Shown: piece after piece, positions 513-17,695 of the stretch
Layout of the letters: each line of letters starts with the position of its first letter
Position numbering within the stretch: position 1 is the stretch's first letter
Source: Escherichia coli
GTDB taxonomy: Bacteria > Pseudomonadota > Gammaproteobacteria > Enterobacterales > Enterobacteriaceae
DNA length: 64,000 nucleotides
Reading direction: 5' to 3' (one strand)
Assembly: GCF_003334765.1 (NCBI RefSeq)
Contig: NZ_QOWT01000007.1
Position numbers and translations under genes: made by a program
The notes under the pieces: model-generated
The model's input: only the letters and a program-made list of their open reading frames with translations
Database searches by the model: none
What the model was told of the DNA's origin: nothing

Positions 513-911
513 ATGGGGCTTTTTGATGAAGTTGTCGGTGCCTTTCTGAAAGGCGATGCGGGGAAATATCAGGCTATTTTAAGTTGGGTTGAGGAGCAGG
601 GCGGCATTCAGGTGCTGCTGGAAAAACTGCAAAGTGGCGGCTTAGGGGCCATTCTCTCAACCTGGCTGAGTAATCAACAGGGCAATCAATCGGTTAGTGG
701 CGAGCAACTGGAATCGGCGCTCGGCACAAATGCGGTGTCCGATCTCGGGCAAAAACTTGGCGTGGATACCAGTACAGCTTCCATTTTACTGGCAGAACAA
801 TTGCCGAAGATTATTGATGCGCTCTCACCGCAAGGTGAAGTGTCACCACAAGCCAATAACGATCTGCTTTCCGCAGGCATGGAACTGCTGAAAGGGAAAC
901 TCTTCCGCTAA
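513..911 (+). CDS. yidB: DUF937 family protein YidB
   Basis: ORF 504..911; internal ATG at 513 gives 132 aa starting MGLFDEVVGAF, matching remembered YidB; the track start at 504 is GTG. Confidence 0.85.
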   Translation: MGLFDEVVGAFLKGDAGKYQAILSWVEEQGGIQVLLEKLQSGGLGAILSTWLSNQQGNQSVSGEQLESALGTNAVSDLGQKLGVDTSTASILLAEQLPKIIDALSPQGEVSPQANNDLLSAGMELLKGKLFR

Positions 912-1025
912 GCAAAAAGGGAGCACGCAACGCGCGTTGCATCCCCCTTTTCCCTCGGGTGTTGTACTGATTTTTGAGCGGAATCGCGTTAGCATGGGTC
1001 AGGAACCAATCTACCTGGGGAACTC

Positions 1026-1838
1026 ATGGCTATTAAACTCATTGCTATCGATATGGATGGCACCCTTCTGCTGCCCGATCACACCATTTCACCCGCCGTT
1101 AAAAATGCGATTGCCGCAGCTCGCGCCCGTGGCGTGAATGTCGTGCTAACGACGGGTCGCCCGTATGCAGGTGTGCACAACTACCTGAAAGAGCTGCATA
1201 TGGAACAGCCGGGCGACTACTGCATTACTTATAACGGCGCGCTGGTACAGAAGGCCGCTGATGGTAGCACCGTGGCGCAAACTGCTCTCAGCTATGACGA
1301 CTATCGTTTCCTGGAAAAACTCTCTCGCGAAGTCGGTTCTCATTTCCACGCCCTGGACCGCACCACGCTGTACACCGCCAACCGTGATATCAGCTACTAC
1401 ACGGTGCATGAATCCTTCGTTGCCACCATTCCGCTGGTGTTCTGCGAAGCGGAGAAAATGGACCCCAATACCCAGTTCCTGAAAGTGATGATGATTGATG
1501 AACCCGCCATCCTCGACCAGGCTATCGCGCGTATTCCGCAGGAAGTGAAAGAGAAATATACCGTGCTGAAAAGTGCGCCGTACTTCCTCGAAATCCTCGA
1601 TAAACGCGTTAACAAAGGTACGGGGGTGAAATCACTGGCCGACGTGTTAGGTATTAAACCGGAAGAAATCATGGCGATTGGCGATCAGGAAAACGATATC
1701 GCAATGATTGAATATGCAGGCGTCGGTGTGGCGATGGATAACGCTATTCCTTCAGTGAAAGAAGTGGCGAACTTTGTCACCAAATCTAACCTTGAAGATG
1801 GCGTGGCGTTTGCTATTGAGAAGTATGTGCTGAATTAA
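1026..1838 (+). CDS. yidA: HAD-superfamily (Cof-type) sugar phosphatase YidA
   Basis: 270-aa ORF with HAD motif I DMDGTLL near the N-terminus and a Cof-like C-terminal motif GDQENDIAM. Confidence 0.9.
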   Translation: MAIKLIAIDMDGTLLLPDHTISPAVKNAIAAARARGVNVVLTTGRPYAGVHNYLKELHMEQPGDYCITYNGALVQKAADGSTVAQTALSYDDYRFLEKLSREVGSHFHALDRTTLYTANRDISYYTVHESFVATIPLVFCEAEKMDPNTQFLKVMMIDEPAILDQAIARIPQEVKEKYTVLKSAPYFLEILDKRVNKGTGVKSLADVLGIKPEEIMAIGDQENDIAMIEYAGVGVAMDNAIPSVKEVANFVTKSNLEDGVAFAIEKYVLN

Positions 1839-1844
1839 TCTGTG

Positions 1845-1876
1845 GGCGGGCAAACAGCATAAACGCGTTTGCCCGC
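1845..1876. terminator. Bidirectional hairpin between convergent yidA and yidX
   Basis: GGGCGGGCAAAC ... GTTTGCCCGC inverted repeat in the 45-bp gap between the two stop codons. Confidence 0.5.
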
Positions 1877-1883
1877 TTACTGA

Positions 1884-2540
1884 TTATTGGTTTACTGCAT
1901 ATACAACCAGAAATTGCAGCGGTGCAGTAATGATGTCCAGCGTAACAGTCACTGGCAGTAATGCTGCGGAAACACCATCCGGAATGCCTCTGGGTGAATA
2001 GTATTCATAAAATCGCACTTTAAATGGATGGTAGAACGCCATCACCTTTGAGTAATCCATGTTTTTATTTTTCTCATGGATTGTGCCTTTTAGGTTTTCC
2101 AGTGACCTGGTACAGTGTTGAACACCACAGGCAAAACCATAATGCGTTGCCAGTGCCTTTTCTTCTTCGTTATTCCAGTAGTAGTAAAGCGATATTGTGC
2201 CGGTAAATTTCTTTTTCCCCGCATTTAAAACAAATCTTGCGTCATCGGCAACCTGAATATTGTGCCGGTTAAGTGCTGGATCATTGAGCATCTTAACGAT
2301 GTCATCGGCACCATCAGTGATAAGGTAATCCAGCGATTCCCCTACAAAAACATAGCCTTTTGTTCCATTACTATCTTTTGCCTGCGATAGCCCAGTGATG
2401 GTGTCTGACTGCGATTGATACTTTCCTGAACTACCCTTTGCGGTATGGGAAACCAGAGCATACGAGATACAGCCTGAAAGCATCAGCGCCAGTGGGAATA
2501 AACCGGCAGCCTTAAAAAATCCCTTAAAATTCAACTTCAT
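1884..2540 (-). CDS. yidX: Lipoprotein YidX
   Basis: Start moved to the internal ATG giving [24 protein letters not shown] (signal peptide plus lipobox LSGC); 218 aa. Confidence 0.75.
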
Positions 2541-2677
2541 GATTAATCCTTTAAACGAGTAGCTAAGCCGTTGAAAGCATACTCTTCTTTCCCTCCTGTT
2601 TAGCGCCTGATATCCCTTTTCAGATTTCTGCCCGACGCATGTCATTTTTTTATGCATTGTTCTTTTTGTGATCTAAA

Positions 2678-2753
2678 TTGTAGTACAACAATATAAGTTT
2701 GTACTACATTACACGCACGGCAAACGCGAACGTCATCACGCTGGTACTACAAA
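2678..2753. promoter_or_regulatory. Three GTA(G/C)TACA palindromic repeats in the dgo promoter region; candidate DgoR (GntR-family) operators
   Basis: TTGTAGTACAACA (2678-2690), TTTGTACTACATT (2698-2710) and CTGGTACTACAAA (2741-2753), 65-140 bp upstream of the dgoR start. Confidence 0.5.
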
Positions 2754-2817
2754 GTTGCCGCGTTATGCATCGATCGGGGTAAAGTAGAGAAGAACATACA
2801 GAGCACAAGGACTCTCC

Positions 2818-3507
2818 ATGACTCTCAATAAAACCGATCGCATTGTCATTACGCTGGGTAAACAGATCGTTCACGGCAAATACGTGCCAGGCTCGCCGCT
2901 TCCGGCTGAGGCGGAACTCTGTGAGGAGTTTGCAACCTCGCGCAACATCATCCGTGAGGTGTTCCGTTCGCTGATGGCGAAGCGGCTGATTGAAATGAAA
3001 CGTTATCGCGGGGCGTTTGTGGCACCGCGTAACCAGTGGAATTACCTCGACACTGACGTACTGCAATGGGTGCTGGAAAATGACTACGACCCACGGCTTA
3101 TCAGTGCCATGAGCGAAGTGCGAAATCTGGTGGAACCGGCGATTGCCCGTTGGGCAGCAGAGCGCGCGACTTCCAGCGATCTGGCGCAGATTGAATCGGC
3201 GCTGAACGAGATGATTGCCAACAATCAGGACCGCGAAGCGTTTAACGAAGCGGATATTCGCTACCACGAGGCGGTGCTGCAGTCGGTGCATAACCCGGTG
3301 TTACAGCAACTTAGCATTGCGATCAGTTCGCTGCAGCGGGCGGTTTTTGAACGAACCTGGATGGGCGATGAGGCCAACATGCCGCAAACGCTCCAGGAAC
3401 ATAAGGCGCTGTTCGATGCGATACGACATCAGGACGGCGATGCGGCAGAGCAGGCGGCGCTTACCATGATCGCCAGCTCGACACGAAGGTTAAAGGAAAT
3501 CACATGA
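2818..3507 (+). CDS. dgoR: GntR/FadR-family transcriptional repressor of the D-galactonate operon
   Basis: 229-aa ORF with an N-terminal winged-HTH and FadR-like C-domain; first gene of the dgoRKADT cluster. Confidence 0.9.
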   Translation: MTLNKTDRIVITLGKQIVHGKYVPGSPLPAEAELCEEFATSRNIIREVFRSLMAKRLIEMKRYRGAFVAPRNQWNYLDTDVLQWVLENDYDPRLISAMSEVRNLVEPAIARWAAERATSSDLAQIESALNEMIANNQDREAFNEADIRYHEAVLQSVHNPVLQQLSIAISSLQRAVFERTWMGDEANMPQTLQEHKALFDAIRHQDGDAAEQAALTMIASSTRRLKEIT

Positions 3508-4382
3508 CAGCTCGCTACATCGCAATTGACTGGGGATCGACCAATCTGCGCGCCTGGCTTTATCAGGGCGACCACTGCCTGGAGAGCAGGCAATCAGAAG
3601 CAGGCGTCACGCGCCTGAACGGAAAATCTCCGGCTGCGGTGTTAGCAGAAGTCACGACCGACTGGCGTGAAGAGAAAACGCCAGTGGTAATGGCAGGAAT
3701 GGTTGGCAGCAACGTCGGCTGGAAAGTTGCACCGTATTTATCTGTTCCTGCCTGTTTTTCGTCTATTGGCGAACAATTAACGTCAGTTGGCGACAATATC
3801 TGGATTATTCCCGGATTATGTGTCTCTCATGACGATAACCACAATGTGATGCGCGGCGAAGAAACACAATTGATCGGCGCGCGAGCTCTGGCTCCTTCCT
3901 CTCTTTATGTCATGCCCGGAACCCATTGCAAATGGGTGCAGGCCGATAGCCAGCAAATCAACGATTTTCGCACCGTGATGACCGGTGAATTACATCATTT
4001 ACTGTTAAATCACTCATTGATTGGCGCAGGTTTGCCGCCGCAGGAAAACTCTGCCGATGCCTTCACAGCTGGCCTTGAGCGTGGTCTTAATACGCCCGCC
4101 ATATTGCCGCAGCTTTTTGAAGTTCGCGCCTCGCATGTGCTGGGAACACTTCCCCGCGAACAGGTCAGCGAATTTCTCTCTGGTTTGTTGATTGGCGCAG
4201 AGGTCGCCAGTATGCGCGACTATGTGGCCCATCAACACGCCATCACCCTTGTCGCCGGAACATCGCTGACCGCGCGCTACCAGCAAGCCTTTCAGGCGAT
4301 GGGTTGCGACGTGACGGCGGTGGCGGGCGACACGGCATTTCAGGCTGGTATAAGGAGCATCGCTCATGCAGTGGCAAACTAA
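3504..4382 (+). CDS. dgoK: 2-dehydro-3-deoxygalactonokinase
   Basis: 292-aa ORF; start overlaps the dgoR stop (ATGA); position and sequence match DgoK. Confidence 0.9.
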   Translation: MTARYIAIDWGSTNLRAWLYQGDHCLESRQSEAGVTRLNGKSPAAVLAEVTTDWREEKTPVVMAGMVGSNVGWKVAPYLSVPACFSSIGEQLTSVGDNIWIIPGLCVSHDDNHNVMRGEETQLIGARALAPSSLYVMPGTHCKWVQADSQQINDFRTVMTGELHHLLLNHSLIGAGLPPQENSADAFTAGLERGLNTPAILPQLFEVRASHVLGTLPREQVSEFLSGLLIGAEVASMRDYVAHQHAITLVAGTSLTARYQQAFQAMGCDVTAVAGDTAFQAGIRSIAHAVAN

Positions 4383-11704: not shown

Positions 11705-13366
11705 ATGAGTGATATAGCATTAACGGTCAGTATTCTGGCTTTGGTGGCAGTCGTCGGTTTGTTTATCGGCAACGTCAAATTTCGCGGCATAGGATTAGGT
11801 ATTGGCGGCGTGCTGTTTGGTGGGATCATCGTCGGCCATTTTGTTTCTCAGGCGGGGATGACATTAAGTAGCGATATGCTGCATGTTATTCAGGAATTTG
11901 GCCTGATCCTGTTCGTTTATACTATCGGGATTCAGGTAGGGCCGGGCTTCTTTGCCTCATTGCGCGTCTCCGGATTACGCCTCAACCTGTTTGCTGTTCT
12001 GATCGTCATCATCGGTGGTCTGGTTACCGCCATCCTGCATAAACTGTTTGATATTCCACTGCCGGTAGTGCTGGGGATTTTCTCCGGTGCGGTTACCAAT
12101 ACGCCAGCGCTGGGGGCAGGGCAGCAGATTTTGCGCGACCTGGGTACACCAATGGAAATGGTCGATCAGATGGGGATGAGTTACGCGATGGCGTATCCAT
12201 TCGGCATTTGCGGGATTTTGTTCACCATGTGGATGTTGCGGGTTATTTTCCGCGTCAATGTCGAGACAGAAGCTCAGCAGCACGAGTCTTCACGCACCAA
12301 TGGCGGCGCGCTGATCAAGACTATCAATATTCGCGTTGAGAACCCTAACCTGCATGATTTAGCCATTAAAGATGTACCGATTCTCAACGGCGACAAAATT
12401 ATCTGCTCGCGTCTGAAACGCGAAGAAACCCTAAAAGTTCCTTCGCCAGATACCATTATCCAACTGGGCGATTTGCTGCATCTGGTGGGTCAGCCAGCGG
12501 ATTTACATAATGCGCAACTGGTGATTGGTCAGGAGGTCGATACTTCGCTGTCCACGAAAGGCACTGATTTGCGCGTCGAGCGTGTGGTGGTCACCAATGA
12601 AAACGTGCTCGGAAAACGTATTCGCGACCTGCACTTTAAAGAACGCTATGACGTTGTTATCTCGCGCCTGAACCGTGCCGGGGTCGAACTGGTCGCCAGT
12701 GGCGATATCAGCCTGCAGTTCGGCGATATCCTCAATCTGGTGGGGCGTCCGTCCGCAATTGATGCCGTTGCCAATGTGCTGGGGAATGCGCAGCAAAAAC
12801 TGCAACAGGTTCAGATGCTGCCAGTGTTTATTGGCATCGGGCTAGGCGTATTGTTAGGTTCTATTCCCGTCTTTGTGCCAGGATTCCCGGCCGCGTTGAA
12901 ACTGGGGCTGGCGGGCGGACCGCTGATTATGGCGTTGATCCTCGGGCGTATCGGCAGTATCGGCAAGCTGTACTGGTTTATGCCGCCAAGCGCCAACCTC
13001 GCGCTGCGGGAGCTGGGGATCGTGCTGTTCCTCTCGGTCGTTGGTCTGAAATCTGGTGGGGATTTTGTGAATACCCTGGTCAATGGCGAAGGGCTAAGCT
13101 GGATTGGTTATGGTGCCCTGATCACCGCCGTTCCGCTGATTACTGTTGGCATTCTGGCGCGGATGTTAGCCAAAATGAATTACCTGACCATGTGCGGGAT
13201 GCTGGCAGGTTCCATGACCGATCCTCCGGCGCTGGCGTTTGCTAATAATCTTCATCCAACCAGCGGTGCGGCGGCGCTCTCTTACGCCACTGTCTATCCG
13301 TTGGTAATGTTCCTGCGCATTATCACCCCCCAATTACTGGCGGTGCTCTTCTGGAGTATCGGTTAA
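11705..13366 (+). CDS. yidE: Putative transporter YidE (AAE family, two TrkA-C domains)
   Basis: 553 aa from the ATG at 11705 ([20 protein letters not shown]...). Confidence 0.85.
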
Positions 13367-14079
13367 CTCTTTTCCGGGTGGAGTCGCCGTAAATGGTACT
13401 CCACCTGGTATTCGCTGGCATTTCTGAACATCACTGAATAATTCAAAAACTCCCCGCTCTCGCTATATGACAACGAGGTGATCCGCAGCAGTGGCGTGTG
13501 TTCCGCTACCTTCATTTGCCGCGCCAGCAGTCTATCGGCGAGCACTGGCGTCAGGCTTTCATAATTACCGCCAATCAAAATCCCGCACTCTTGTTCAATA
13601 TATTCAAACTTCGACCCTTCCAGATGTTGCAGCGAAAGATTACGGAACAGTTTTACCGGCATATAGCTGTCTTCCAGCATCAGCGGTTTCCCTTCCACAA
13701 AACGAACGCGACGGGAGAAGTAGATCTGCTCGTTGATTTGAATCCGTAACTGGCTGGCAATGGCCGGAGGCGCAGGCATGATTTCAAAAATCAGCACCTG
13801 GCTGGTGACCGTTTTTCCCTGCCGTTTTAACACCTCCACCAGCCCGGTCAGACTGGCGGTTTGATGCAGTACATCTTTGCGCACCAGGTAAGTGCCACTA
13901 CCGTGGCGGCGGACCACCAGCCCCCACGCTACCAGCAGGTCAATGGCTTTACGGATGGTCATCCGCGATACCGCAAACTCTTCCGCCAGCTTTTTTTCAC
14001 CGGGAAGAAGGCTGTTTAGCGTGAAATCTGCGGAGTTAAGTCGAATTCTTAACCGCTCCGCAATGCTTTTGTAGATCAT
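13363..14079 (-). CDS. yidP: GntR/HutC-family transcriptional regulator YidP
   Basis: 238 aa from [45 protein letters not shown] (HTH) with a UTRA-like C-domain; the track ORF is extended upstream. Confidence 0.8.
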
Positions 14080-14374
14080 CTCTAGATCTCTTTTTTGCCT
14101 GCAAGCCCGGGTAATGCGCACACAAGTTCTGCTTAATCGATTGAAAAAACATCTTTTTTTTAAAGATGTGTTCGATGCTGTGTACCTGTGCTCACAGAGG
14201 TCTACTTTTTCGCGAAAACGTAGATCTCTACCGCCCAACGAAAAGCATGAAAGCGATCACGAATCCCATTGGGTCGTCATGTTCTGCCGATCGCATCTTC
14301 CTATCCTCGCTCCAGGCCTGCCGCATAACCAATCAGGCTTCCTACTTACAGAATTGAGAAAAGAGGATGTGGAA

Positions 14375-17695
<3,321 letters not shown>

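Follow-up and report, generated by a model that had tools for sequence, protein, structure and literature searches.

The closest described systems to the yidP/glvC locus of Escherichia coli are aglA/aglB of Klebsiella pneumoniae and glvA-glvR-glvC of Bacillus subtilis, which comprise similar genes, encoding an EIICB and a family 4 phospho-alpha-glucosidase. In B. subtilis, GlvR, an activator of the RpiR type, controls the glv operon, whereas the regulator encoded at the yidP/glvC locus is a GntR protein. In E. coli K-12, the homologues of these alpha-glucoside PTS genes are cryptic or truncated (PMC5309279). In the searchable literature, we found no operator or regulon for YidP or this enterobacterial GntR regulator, and no YidP binding or expression data.

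For the regulator itself, the best comparison is with NagR of B. subtilis and DasR of Streptomyces, whose operators are termed dre sites. In these sites, the recognition elements lie 6 nt apart, with the two DNA-binding domains touching; NagR uses its Arg48 to read G-4, and native half-sites frequently have T in place of G-5 (PMC4333415).

The yidP/glvC locus and its orthologues

The window analyzed here, a 64,000-nt stretch of DNA, is from E. coli and shows a single base difference from K-12 over 7.6 kb. An ORF on the minus strand (13363-14079) encodes a GntR/HutC-type regulator of 238 aa, named yidP in the K-12 MC1061 annotation, whose start codon appears as CAT at 14077-14079 (ATG at 14079-14077 on the minus strand). 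On the plus strand, the glvC(B) ORF (14375-15991), intact in the window and starting with the ATG at 14375, encodes an alpha-glucoside PTS EIICB of 538 aa. It is followed by a glvG remnant (15991-16805, plus strand) of a family 4 phospho-alpha-glucosidase gene, which has lost an internal part (residues about 208-366) and is frameshifted. The 295 bp between the two start codons (14080-14374) are most likely the control region common to yidP and to the divergent glvC(B)-glvG' operon, which forms part of our best explanation of the locus.

The orthologue set comprised 76 species in which yidP and glvC are likewise divergently arranged; the divergent neighbor of yidP in these 76 loci was 70-92% identical to the glvC(B) product. 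Column conservation was scored in bits over 60 non-redundant species, and chance was estimated from shuffles (2000 dinucleotide-preserving ones of the intergenic region for the 8-bp repeat, and 500 for the long dyad described below).

The 8-bp inverted repeat lies in a hypervariable spacer

An earlier note on this sequence had put forward, as candidate YidP sites, a perfect 8-bp inverted repeat and two AGATCT-centered palindromes. The inverted repeat, ACATCTTT-N5-AAAGATGT, is indeed present between yidP and glvC at 14149-14169, its arms (14149-14156 and 14162-14169) flanking a TTTTT loop, and an inverted-repeat search extended it to 11-nt arms at 91%. A perfect palindrome located between a regulator and its presumed target, with arms that are kept in three E. 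coli strains while the T-run loop varies, would suit an operator read by YidP. However, a perfect inverted repeat of at least 8 bp with a loop of at most 12 was obtained in 5.5% of 2000 intergenic shuffles, a marginal value (p≈0.055), and ACATCTTT bears no likeness to the conserved TAGAC motif of the region or to HutC-type half-sites. The repeat falls within a single-copy hypervariable spacer segment (14096-14195), 100 bp over which E. coli and E. albertii are 36% identical, against 92% and 84% in the flanks; E. albertii does not keep the repeat although its YidP is 97% identical to that of E. coli. This segment is a gap in about half of the 76 orthologous loci (roughly 30 short-spacer species), and in long-spacer species the part holding the repeat is not alignable to E. 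coli. Since its segment is absent or unalignable across orthologous loci, the repeat, specific to E. coli, is not a conserved operator. The proposal that YidP binds it failed this comparison across 76 species, and appears on these alignments close to refuted; we consider it extremely unlikely. A repeat-element origin of the variable segment was also rejected, as the segment occurs once per genome, at one place, in 4279 E. coli genomes.

The repeat could alternatively matter as a structure, namely a hairpin of the yidP 5′ leader that works as a weak attenuator, or it could overlap a weak yidP promoter. Its RNA was predicted to fold at -7.7 kcal/mol on the minus strand, where UUUUUU follows the stem, and at -11 kcal/mol on the plus strand, with z about -3 in both cases. 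E. albertii carries its own, different perfect repeat of 10 bp (ACATTGAAAA-N8-TTTTCAATGT) at the homologous place, and among 33 spacers of the long type or of intermediate length, 13 had a best repeat at p<0.1 in mononucleotide shuffles, which understate the repeats expected in A/T-tract DNA. Yet repeat positions in the spacers of other species are scattered (offsets 16-101), the E. albertii hairpin has no U-tract, and the AT-rich E. coli stem, with 2 G-C pairs, was not recognized as an intrinsic terminator by the terminator scan. As for a promoter, the sole leftward sigma-70-like match places its -10 hexamer TAAAAA at 14162-14157, inside the repeat, but it scores only 8/12 and has no T at position 6 of this hexamer. 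Taken together, these observations make a structural or promoter role quite unlikely.

A conserved dyad and a third copy of the TAGAC motif

AGATCT occurs at the two places indicated, 14084-14089 and 14222-14227, but neither surrounding 12-mer is a perfect palindrome. The first (14081-14092, TCTAGATCTCTT) consists of two overlapping 6-bp palindromes, TCTAGA and AGATCT, while the second (14220-14231, GTAGATCTCTAC) reads GTAGA-TC-TCTAC, with 5-bp arms centered off AGATCT. Nor are these palindromes conserved: the species consensus is AGACCT or AGACAA, and only 8 of the 60 species at 14087, and 2 at 14225, have the T needed for AGATCT. What stood of this proposal is the choice of positions, as both spots fall on TAGAC(C)TCT, the motif that is best conserved in the region, in its two most conserved rightward copies. 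In E. coli these give an exact 9-bp direct repeat, TAGATCTCT, at 14083-14091 and 14221-14229, which as a bare repeat is not exceptional in shuffles (p≈0.12). The motif TAGAYCTCT, however, has 3 matches on both strands of the 64 kb for 0.29 expected, all within 14083-14229, a number reached by none of 100 shuffles. Among the 60 species, GTAGAC was the only non-AT-rich hexamer found at least twice in half of the regions (30/60).

The best operator candidate is a 28-bp dyad, TGTCTA-N16-TAGACA, at 14199-14226, formed by two inverted TAGAC copies around an axis at 14212.5. In the window, its half-sites read GGTCTA (14199-14204, consensus TGTCTA) and TAGATC (14221-14226, consensus TAGACA), the right one containing the second AGATCT, and a T-tract (14207-14209) and an A-tract (14216-14219) lie inside the dyad. 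Conservation over the 60 species is symmetric about the axis, with 1.0-2.0 bits in the half-site columns and 0.06-0.49 at the center; G14200 is kept in 59 species and the second-position A of TAGACA in all 60. The TG (14199-14200) and CA (14225-14226) dinucleotides are 24 nt apart in every orthologue and paralog. The pattern GTC[TC]A-N16-TAGAC matched 113 times in 596 kb of locus sequence, every time upstream of yidP. The E. coli sequence forms a longer palindrome at 14196-14229, AGAGGTCTACTTTTTCG|CGAAAACGTAGATCTCT, with 17-nt arms complementary at 15 of 17 positions, matched by none of 500 shuffles. This symmetry, the largest of the region, and the inverted motif copy at 14199-14204 had gone unseen in the earlier note.

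Five paralogous systems, each with a regulator and an EIICB, retain the 6-N16-6 geometry. Their half-sites are TGTCTA/TAGACA in one, altered on the right only in another, and both altered to the GTATA/GTACA type in the remaining 3 of 5. From the motif, its conservation and its geometry, the dyad at 14199-14226 is likely to be the real operator candidate of the region, and we infer that YidP would be its binder.

The third motif copy, H1 (CTAGATCTCT, consensus GTAGACCTCT), is located at 14082-14091 and holds the first AGATCT. It lies 2 nt from the yidP start codon and overlaps its Shine-Dalgarno sequence (AGAGG on the minus strand, in other species). Over the 60 species, 8 of its 10 columns (14084-14091) score 1.43-2.0 bits, with 1.48 at 14083 and only 0.63 at 14082. 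H1 is retained in the five paralogous loci and lost in all three cases where the yidP orthologue is the second gene of its operon. The spacer between H1 and the dyad, unalignable in sequence, falls into two length classes, 118 bp (32 loci) and 43-44 bp (30 loci).

A CRP-like site and the predicted glvC promoter

The CRP consensus is TGTGA-N6-TCACA (PMC1635313). A CRP-like site, CATGA-AAGCGA-TCACG, was found at 14246-14261 in a conserved block that reaches 14237-14268; it has the correct N6 spacing and matches the core at 3/5 and 4/5 positions. Most of its columns carry 1.0-2.0 bits (0.75 at 14252; 60 species), and its distance to the dyad, 41 bp from the axis, is fixed, with no indel in any orthologue. 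As in class I CRP promoters of the lac type, the same geometry is found with one good half (TCACG, or TCACA in paralogs), the site has its center some 60 bp ahead of the predicted start, and the promoter would be a weak one of a secondary-sugar operon. The left half departs from the CRP consensus, reading CATGA in all species, with another base in place of the G that the 22-mer has at position 5. The 6-nt spacer is conserved too among orthologues, which leaves room for another reading, and the site matches a LacI-family pattern, TGnAAnCGnTTnCA, at 8/10 positions. An operator of the LacI-family or Cra-like kind is the less likely reading, as the paralogs lose the central CG and keep CATGA-N6-TCACA; CRP thus seems the better guess for this block. 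In the paralogs whose dyad half-sites differ, the CRP-like block is unchanged and CATGA-N6-TCACA is retained. A half-site change beside a constant CRP-like block is as expected if the dyad were the operator of a local regulator next to the site of a global one.

A predicted glvC -10 hexamer, TATCCT (consensus TATTCT), lies in a conserved block on the plus strand at 14302-14307. It would put the glvC start near 14314, the center of the CRP-like site (14253.5) near -60.5 and that of the dyad near -102, an odd position for a simple repressor. Where the glvC transcript is predicted to begin, RNAalifold proposed a small hairpin (GGCC...GGCC, 14314-14340, plus strand) of 4 pairs, 2 of them with changes on both sides, in 3 sequence-pair cells over 16 sequences, which makes it a weak candidate for a conserved structure. 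Scans for consensus sigma-70 promoters and for terminators, covering the window and three orthologous regions, gave nothing useful. A relaxed promoter scan yielded no candidate of at least 8/12 with A2 and T6 in the -10 hexamer, and further relaxation returned weak candidates; these scans located no yidP promoter and did not place the glvC promoter with confidence. Rfam covariance models had no match at E≤1 on either strand of 13300-14700. A small ORF starting at the conserved ATG 14247 (MKAITN...) was discarded, since it varies between 2 and 49 codons in length from one species to another and its stops are not conserved.

The dyad and H1 could be real elements that are not read by YidP, namely divergent promoter elements, the site of another factor, or, for H1, a ribosome-binding site only. 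TAGACA matches 5/6 of the -35 consensus TTGACA, and TAGACA/TGTCTA resemble outward-pointing -35 hexamers, but the invariant second-position A stands where a -35 element favors T, and no -10 hexamer is found 16-18 bp from either half-site. Regarding H1, AGAGG is at a proper distance from the yidP start codon, and the ribosome-binding site inside H1 alone explains part of its conservation. Moreover, H1 does not covary with the dyad, remaining TAGACC in paralogs whose dyads are TATACA, and the dyad position is unusual for repression. Against a ribosome-binding site only, translation of yidP as a second gene does without the TCTAC of H1, which is lost there. For the dyad, conservation is symmetric, inner T and A tracts included, and points to a dimeric protein, and the half-sites differ between paralogous regulators while the geometry is kept. 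A reader other than YidP therefore appears distinctly unlikely to us, and YidP remains the favored binder of the dyad.

YidP compared with NagR and DasR

The precomputed Pfam annotation of the YidP cluster (PF00392 and PF07702) gives an N-terminal GntR winged helix-turn-helix and a C-terminal UTRA domain; by this domain composition, YidP is a GntR regulator of the HutC subfamily. Using phmmer, its closest solved relatives were NagR/YvoA over the full length (3e-24) and DasR over residues 22-149 (1e-13). In a gap-free alignment with NagR/YvoA, Arg48 and Gly69 are kept as R39 and G60, whereas Arg38 is replaced by Lys29. Covariation between residue 29 and the half-site base was considered and rejected: Asn accompanies TGTATA in 3 of 3 paralogs, yet residue 29 varies (K, V, I, Q) among orthologues that all have identical TGTCTA half-sites.

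The dyad has the character of HutC-type operators, being an inverted repeat with half-sites of the GT...AC or GTCTA type (TGTATA/TATACA in paralogs). TGTCTA corresponds to positions -5 to +1 of the dre half-site, and its T-G fits the NagR reading, since G-4 is read by Arg48 and G-5 is often T. As for NagR and DasR, the inverted repeat lies within the regulator's own sugar-utilization locus; for these two, the releasing effector is a sugar phosphate, a likeness that we propose for YidP. The spacing, however, differs from that of dre, TG and CA being 24 nt and not 6 nt apart, and the YidP locus further differs by conserved T and A tracts between the half-sites and by a third, distal copy. With half-sites two helical turns apart (24 versus 6 nt), one NagR-like closed dimer cannot span both. 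YidP-type regulators may read half-sites separated by two helical turns together with H1 at a locked distance, which would require a dimer in an open (splayed) form, a dimer of dimers or looping of the DNA.

Escherichia-specific changes and the state of the operon

In Escherichia, derived C-to-T changes in the half-sites led to the AGATCT palindromes first noticed. The E. coli sites depart from the consensus at 14199, 14219, 14225 and 14087, departures that could reflect decay rather than function. The E. coli elements would then be non-functional relics, the AGATCT forms resulting from mutational decay of a former operator. The target operon in E. coli is a decayed pseudogene remnant: tblastn with a full-length GH4 protein of 440 aa recovered glvG residues 1-207 and 367-440 in two frames, while the GH4 gene is full length in 73 of 78 other loci. 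glvG is annotated as frameshifted in K-12, where glvC, intact in the window, is interrupted at codon 369 by a stop that is due to a single base, 15479. The locus is absent from about 1136 of 5426 genomes (21%), and one strain has an IS element in the region. E. coli is off consensus at several operator and -10-like positions. Nevertheless, about 4275 genomes have an intact yidP ORF, at or close to full length and at least 95% identical. Also unexpected under random decay, the same C-to-T change affects the same motif position in copies H1 and H3 and, for O157, in H2 as well, and the symmetry is preserved or even improved. In O157-type E. coli, symmetric substitutions at 14200/14225 and 14199/14226 produce a perfect 34-bp palindrome, present in 309 genomes. 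We therefore hold the relic reading to be possible but unlikely, and keep an operator read by YidP as the preferred one.

Operators sensitive to Dam methylation are exemplified by agn43/OxyR and pap/Lrp. As in these systems, GATC sites are clustered within the presumed regulator-binding sites at yidP/glvC: five of them share 219 bp, a density found nowhere else in the 64-kb window. Unlike in those systems, 2 of the 5 are ancestral parts of other conserved elements. With all the copies converted to AGATCT, which contains GATC, YidP binding might have become Dam-methylation-sensitive in Escherichia, and by analogy the operator might work as a methylation-sensitive switch. Considered jointly, either a new HutC-family binding mode or such a switch seems to us very unlikely.

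Proposed regulation and its significance

The motif statistics, conservation, geometry and synteny observed, together with the family of YidP, underlie an explanation that we judge moderately probable, in which YidP would repress the yidP/glvC region through a three-copy TAGAC motif (the dyad and H1), with activation by CRP. In the absence of inducer, YidP dimers would sit on the dyad, and the third copy, H1, may be reached through cooperative binding or looping; the inducer is probably an alpha-glucoside that the transporter has phosphorylated. As a result, yidP would be repressed, and glvC would be repressed directly or indirectly. The CRP-like site, at about -60 from the weak glvC promoter, would provide catabolite control, all promoter positions here being predicted ones.

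For the physiology of E. coli, the stakes are low, as the operon survives as a pseudogene remnant and a fifth of strains lack the locus; the informative species are those with an intact operon encoding the transporter and the phospho-alpha-glucosidase. YidP is still listed among the uncharacterized transcription factors of E. coli, and our analysis offers a 28-bp candidate site for it, with its critical bases named. If true, recognition of half-sites 22 bp apart center to center would broaden the view of how GntR regulators of the HutC type engage DNA.

Palindromes and repeated motifs between yidP and glvC

A 295-bp intergenic region (14080-14374) separates yidP (13363-14079, minus strand, start codon 14079-14077), which adjoins yidE, from the divergent glvC(B) gene (14375-15991, plus strand), followed by a glvG remnant (15991-16805) and then yidL. 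This Escherichia coli window matches K-12 derivatives at 100% identity over 13900-14500, and a single base differs from K-12 MC1061 across the 7.6-kb stretch around the region.

Three palindromes had been proposed in an earlier note as candidate YidP binding sites. Inspection of the sequence confirmed the presence of all three: a perfect 8-bp inverted repeat, ACATCTTT-N5-AAAGATGT, at 14149-14169, and AGATCT at 14084-14089 and 14222-14227. When the intergenic region was shuffled with its dinucleotides preserved, 5.5% of the shuffles contained a perfect repeat of such size, so that the 8-bp repeat taken alone is marginal. Both AGATCT sites lie within an exact 9-bp repeat, TAGATCTCT, of which an inverted relative, TAGACCTCT, is found on the minus strand at 14196-14204. 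The motif TAGAYCTCT occurs three times in the 64-kb window (expected 0.29), each time inside the same 150 bp, a count reached in none of 100 shuffles. A 34-bp near-palindrome (14196-14229), missed in the earlier note, is made up of two of these copies and has 15 of 17 arm positions complementary; none of 500 shuffles equalled it.

Phylogenetic footprinting of the control region

YidP orthologs were aligned and 80 loci retrieved, with one genome per species; in 76 of them the divergent gene upstream encodes a GlvC ortholog (70-92% identity). The alignment of these 76 intergenic regions and that of the window was reduced to 60 sequences below 90% identity and revealed four conserved blocks. The first (14082-14091, consensus GTAGACCTCT), hereafter H1, adjoins the yidP start codon. 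The second is a dyad of TGTCTA (14199-14204) and TAGACA (14221-14226) around an unconserved centre, with T and A tracts on the inner side of the half-sites, and its conservation is symmetric around 14212.5. The third (14237-14268, AAAACCATGAAAGCGATCACGAATCG) is separated from the dyad without any indel in any ortholog, and the fourth comprises TATYCT (14302-14307) and the glvC ribosome-binding site.

Apart from AT-rich hexamers, GTAGAC/GTCTAC alone occurred two or more times in half of the regions (30/60), and the corresponding pentamer was present at least three times in 27 of the 60. The strict pattern GTC[TC]A-N16-TAGAC gave 113 matches in the 596 kb of retrieved loci, of which 110 fall between yidP and glvC in 65 loci; the remaining three, upstream of yidP, come from two loci excluded because their flanks were short or partial, and none was found elsewhere in these 596 kb.

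The consensus at both AGATCT positions is AGACCT or AGACAA, with T at 14087 in 8/60 species and T at 14225 in 2/60, both being common to E. albertii. AGATCT is a derived Escherichia form, so the two sites do not hold as conserved palindromes but do mark two of the three copies of a conserved motif.

As a conserved operator, the 8-bp repeat did not withstand footprinting, the check named in the earlier note itself. The segment that holds it (14096-14195) is a gap in short-spacer species and unalignable in others, and shares 36% identity with E. albertii between flanks at 92% and 84%. A mobile repeat was ruled out, as the segment is single copy. The repeat may nevertheless have a local role: it forms a modest RNA fold (z about -3), followed by U6 on the yidP sense strand, E. 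albertii carries a different 10-bp repeat in the same place, the variable spacers of other species show some enrichment of such repeats, and the sole leftward promoter-like match puts its -10 hexamer inside it. These pointers are weak and none implicates YidP. The YidP-site interpretation survives in spirit with another element, the dyad at 14199-14226 being the supported candidate operator and H1 a possible partner.

Candidate regulator and geometry of the dyad

YidP contains GntR and UTRA domains, and its nearest solved relatives are the HutC-subfamily repressors NagR/YvoA and DasR. In the literature that names it, YidP is mentioned solely as an uncharacterised factor; one source calls its orthologs "glv operon transcriptional regulator". 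The gap-free YidP-NagR alignment matches R39 with NagR Arg48, G60 with Gly69 and K29 with Arg38. In NagR bound to DNA, G-4 is read by Arg48 and G-5 by Arg38; native half-sites often have T in place of G-5, and 6 nt separate the recognition elements in that structure (PMC4333415). TGTCTA of the dyad fits positions -5 to +1 of the NagR half-site, and G14200 is retained in 59/60 species. On these comparisons, we infer that YidP is the probable binder of the dyad.

A paralogous cassette beside yidP, encoding a regulator about 54% identical to YidP, an EIICB transporter and a 440-residue GH4 enzyme, was found in five retrieved loci (L044, at 878-4235, and L082, L083, L084 and L085), whose hosts include Citrobacter rodentium, Scandinavium (deposited as Citrobacter sp. 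18056) and Kluyvera georgiana. In three cases the yidP ortholog lies downstream of the cassette's regulator paralog in the same orientation. In all five paralogous examples the 6-N16-6 geometry is preserved, and the CATGA-N6-TCACA block still lies downstream. Both half-sites are altered to the GTATA/GTACA type in three (TGTATA with TATACA or TGTACA), the right one alone in a fourth (TGTCTG with TATACA), and the fifth retains TGTCTA/TAGACA. Such a pattern would arise if the neighbouring regulator used the dyad and a global factor the CATGA-N6-TCACA block, and it supports a local regulator for the dyad. A clean residue-to-base code between regulators and half-sites was looked for and not found.

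The TG and CA of the dyad, the steps that the conserved arginine would read, are 24 nt apart versus 6 nt for the NagR elements, so a closed NagR-like dimer could not reach both half-sites. Two dimers with one specific half-site each, an open dimer or a higher oligomer are possible arrangements.

The H1 copy and its spacer

H1 overlaps the yidP Shine-Dalgarno sequence (AGAGG on the minus strand in most species), which partly accounts for its conservation. Three observations suggest that H1 serves more than translation: its TCTAC spacer is identical to the operator half-site; the motif is lost in 3/3 cases where the yidP ortholog is second in an operon, with the ribosome-binding site still there; and H1 is kept at one of two locked distances from the dyad, 118 bp in 32 loci or 43-44 bp in 30 loci, despite sequence in between that is unalignable between genera. 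Against this, H1 stays TAGACC in paralogs with TATACA dyads. An auxiliary role for H1 is put forward only tentatively. The spacer itself measures 109 bp in most species of the long type; E. coli and E. albertii have 107 bp, and short-type species have a spacer about 75 bp shorter.

Next to H1, 63/76 yidP orthologs start with GTG instead of ATG, and the Ile2 codon is ATC in 76/76. As a result, GTGATCTAC makes up a further TCTAC-containing repeat, 11 bp from the motif copy at the ribosome-binding site; the first codons may be under DNA- or RNA-level constraint.

CRP-like block and promoters

CATGA-AAGCGA-TCACG (14246-14261) is arranged like a CRP site, with one of its halves good; the paralogs have TCACA. 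If TATYCT is the -10 hexamer, glvC would start near 14314 with the CRP-like site centred near -60.5, resembling a lac-like class I promoter. Promoter scans detected no consensus promoter, which fits an activator-dependent glvC promoter, a putative assignment. From the same predicted start, the dyad centre would lie near -102 for glvC, unlike the usual position of a simple repressor. A yidP promoter was searched for and not located.

A small GGCC...GGCC hairpin (14314-14340) is found where the 5' end of the glvC mRNA is predicted. Changes on both sides affect two of its four predicted pairs (G-C to A-U, C-G to U-A), representing three sequence-pair cells among 16 sequences, and the loop varies in length, as would suit an RNA hairpin better than a protein site. 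A 36-codon ORF (14247-14357, MKAITN...) begins at a conserved ATG in the CRP-like block and was judged non-coding because its length is unconserved (2-49 codons in other species).

State of the system in E. coli

The K-12 genes have been described as cryptic or truncated (PMC5309279). Compared with a full-length 440-residue GH4, only residues 1-207 and 367-440 are matched by the window's glvG, in two frames, as left by an internal deletion of about 160 codons and a frameshift according to this alignment; full-length glvG is present in 73/78 related loci. At 15479, the one base that differs from MC1061, C in the window encodes Gln369 of GlvC and T in K-12 makes codon 369 a stop, so that GlvC and GlvB are one intact 538-aa EIICB protein in the window; GlvC is also annotated as intact in O157:H7 and one urinary isolate. 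Of 5426 complete E. coli genomes, about 1136 have no yidP-glv locus (13363-16805) at all, and yidE abuts yidL in these; strain MB53 carries the IS4-like ISVsa5 at about 14186, just left of the dyad.

Simple decay does not account for the E. coli operator. Its departures from consensus are the identical C-to-T change at the same motif position in two copies, and in the O157:H7 lineage the symmetric partner changes too, giving a perfect 34-bp palindrome (309 genomes, with the K-12-like form in 3446). Five GATC sites (14074, 14085, 14223, 14255 and 14289) fall within 219 bp (14074-14292), the sole 220-bp stretch with five in the 64-kb window. Two are made by the Escherichia-specific C-to-T changes in TAGAC half-sites, and O157-type strains have a sixth at 14199.

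The element is of an ordinary kind, a local repressor's candidate site beside a CRP-like site, with a spacing unusual for the family. The regulator to which this candidate operator is assigned is uncharacterised, and its operon is decayed.
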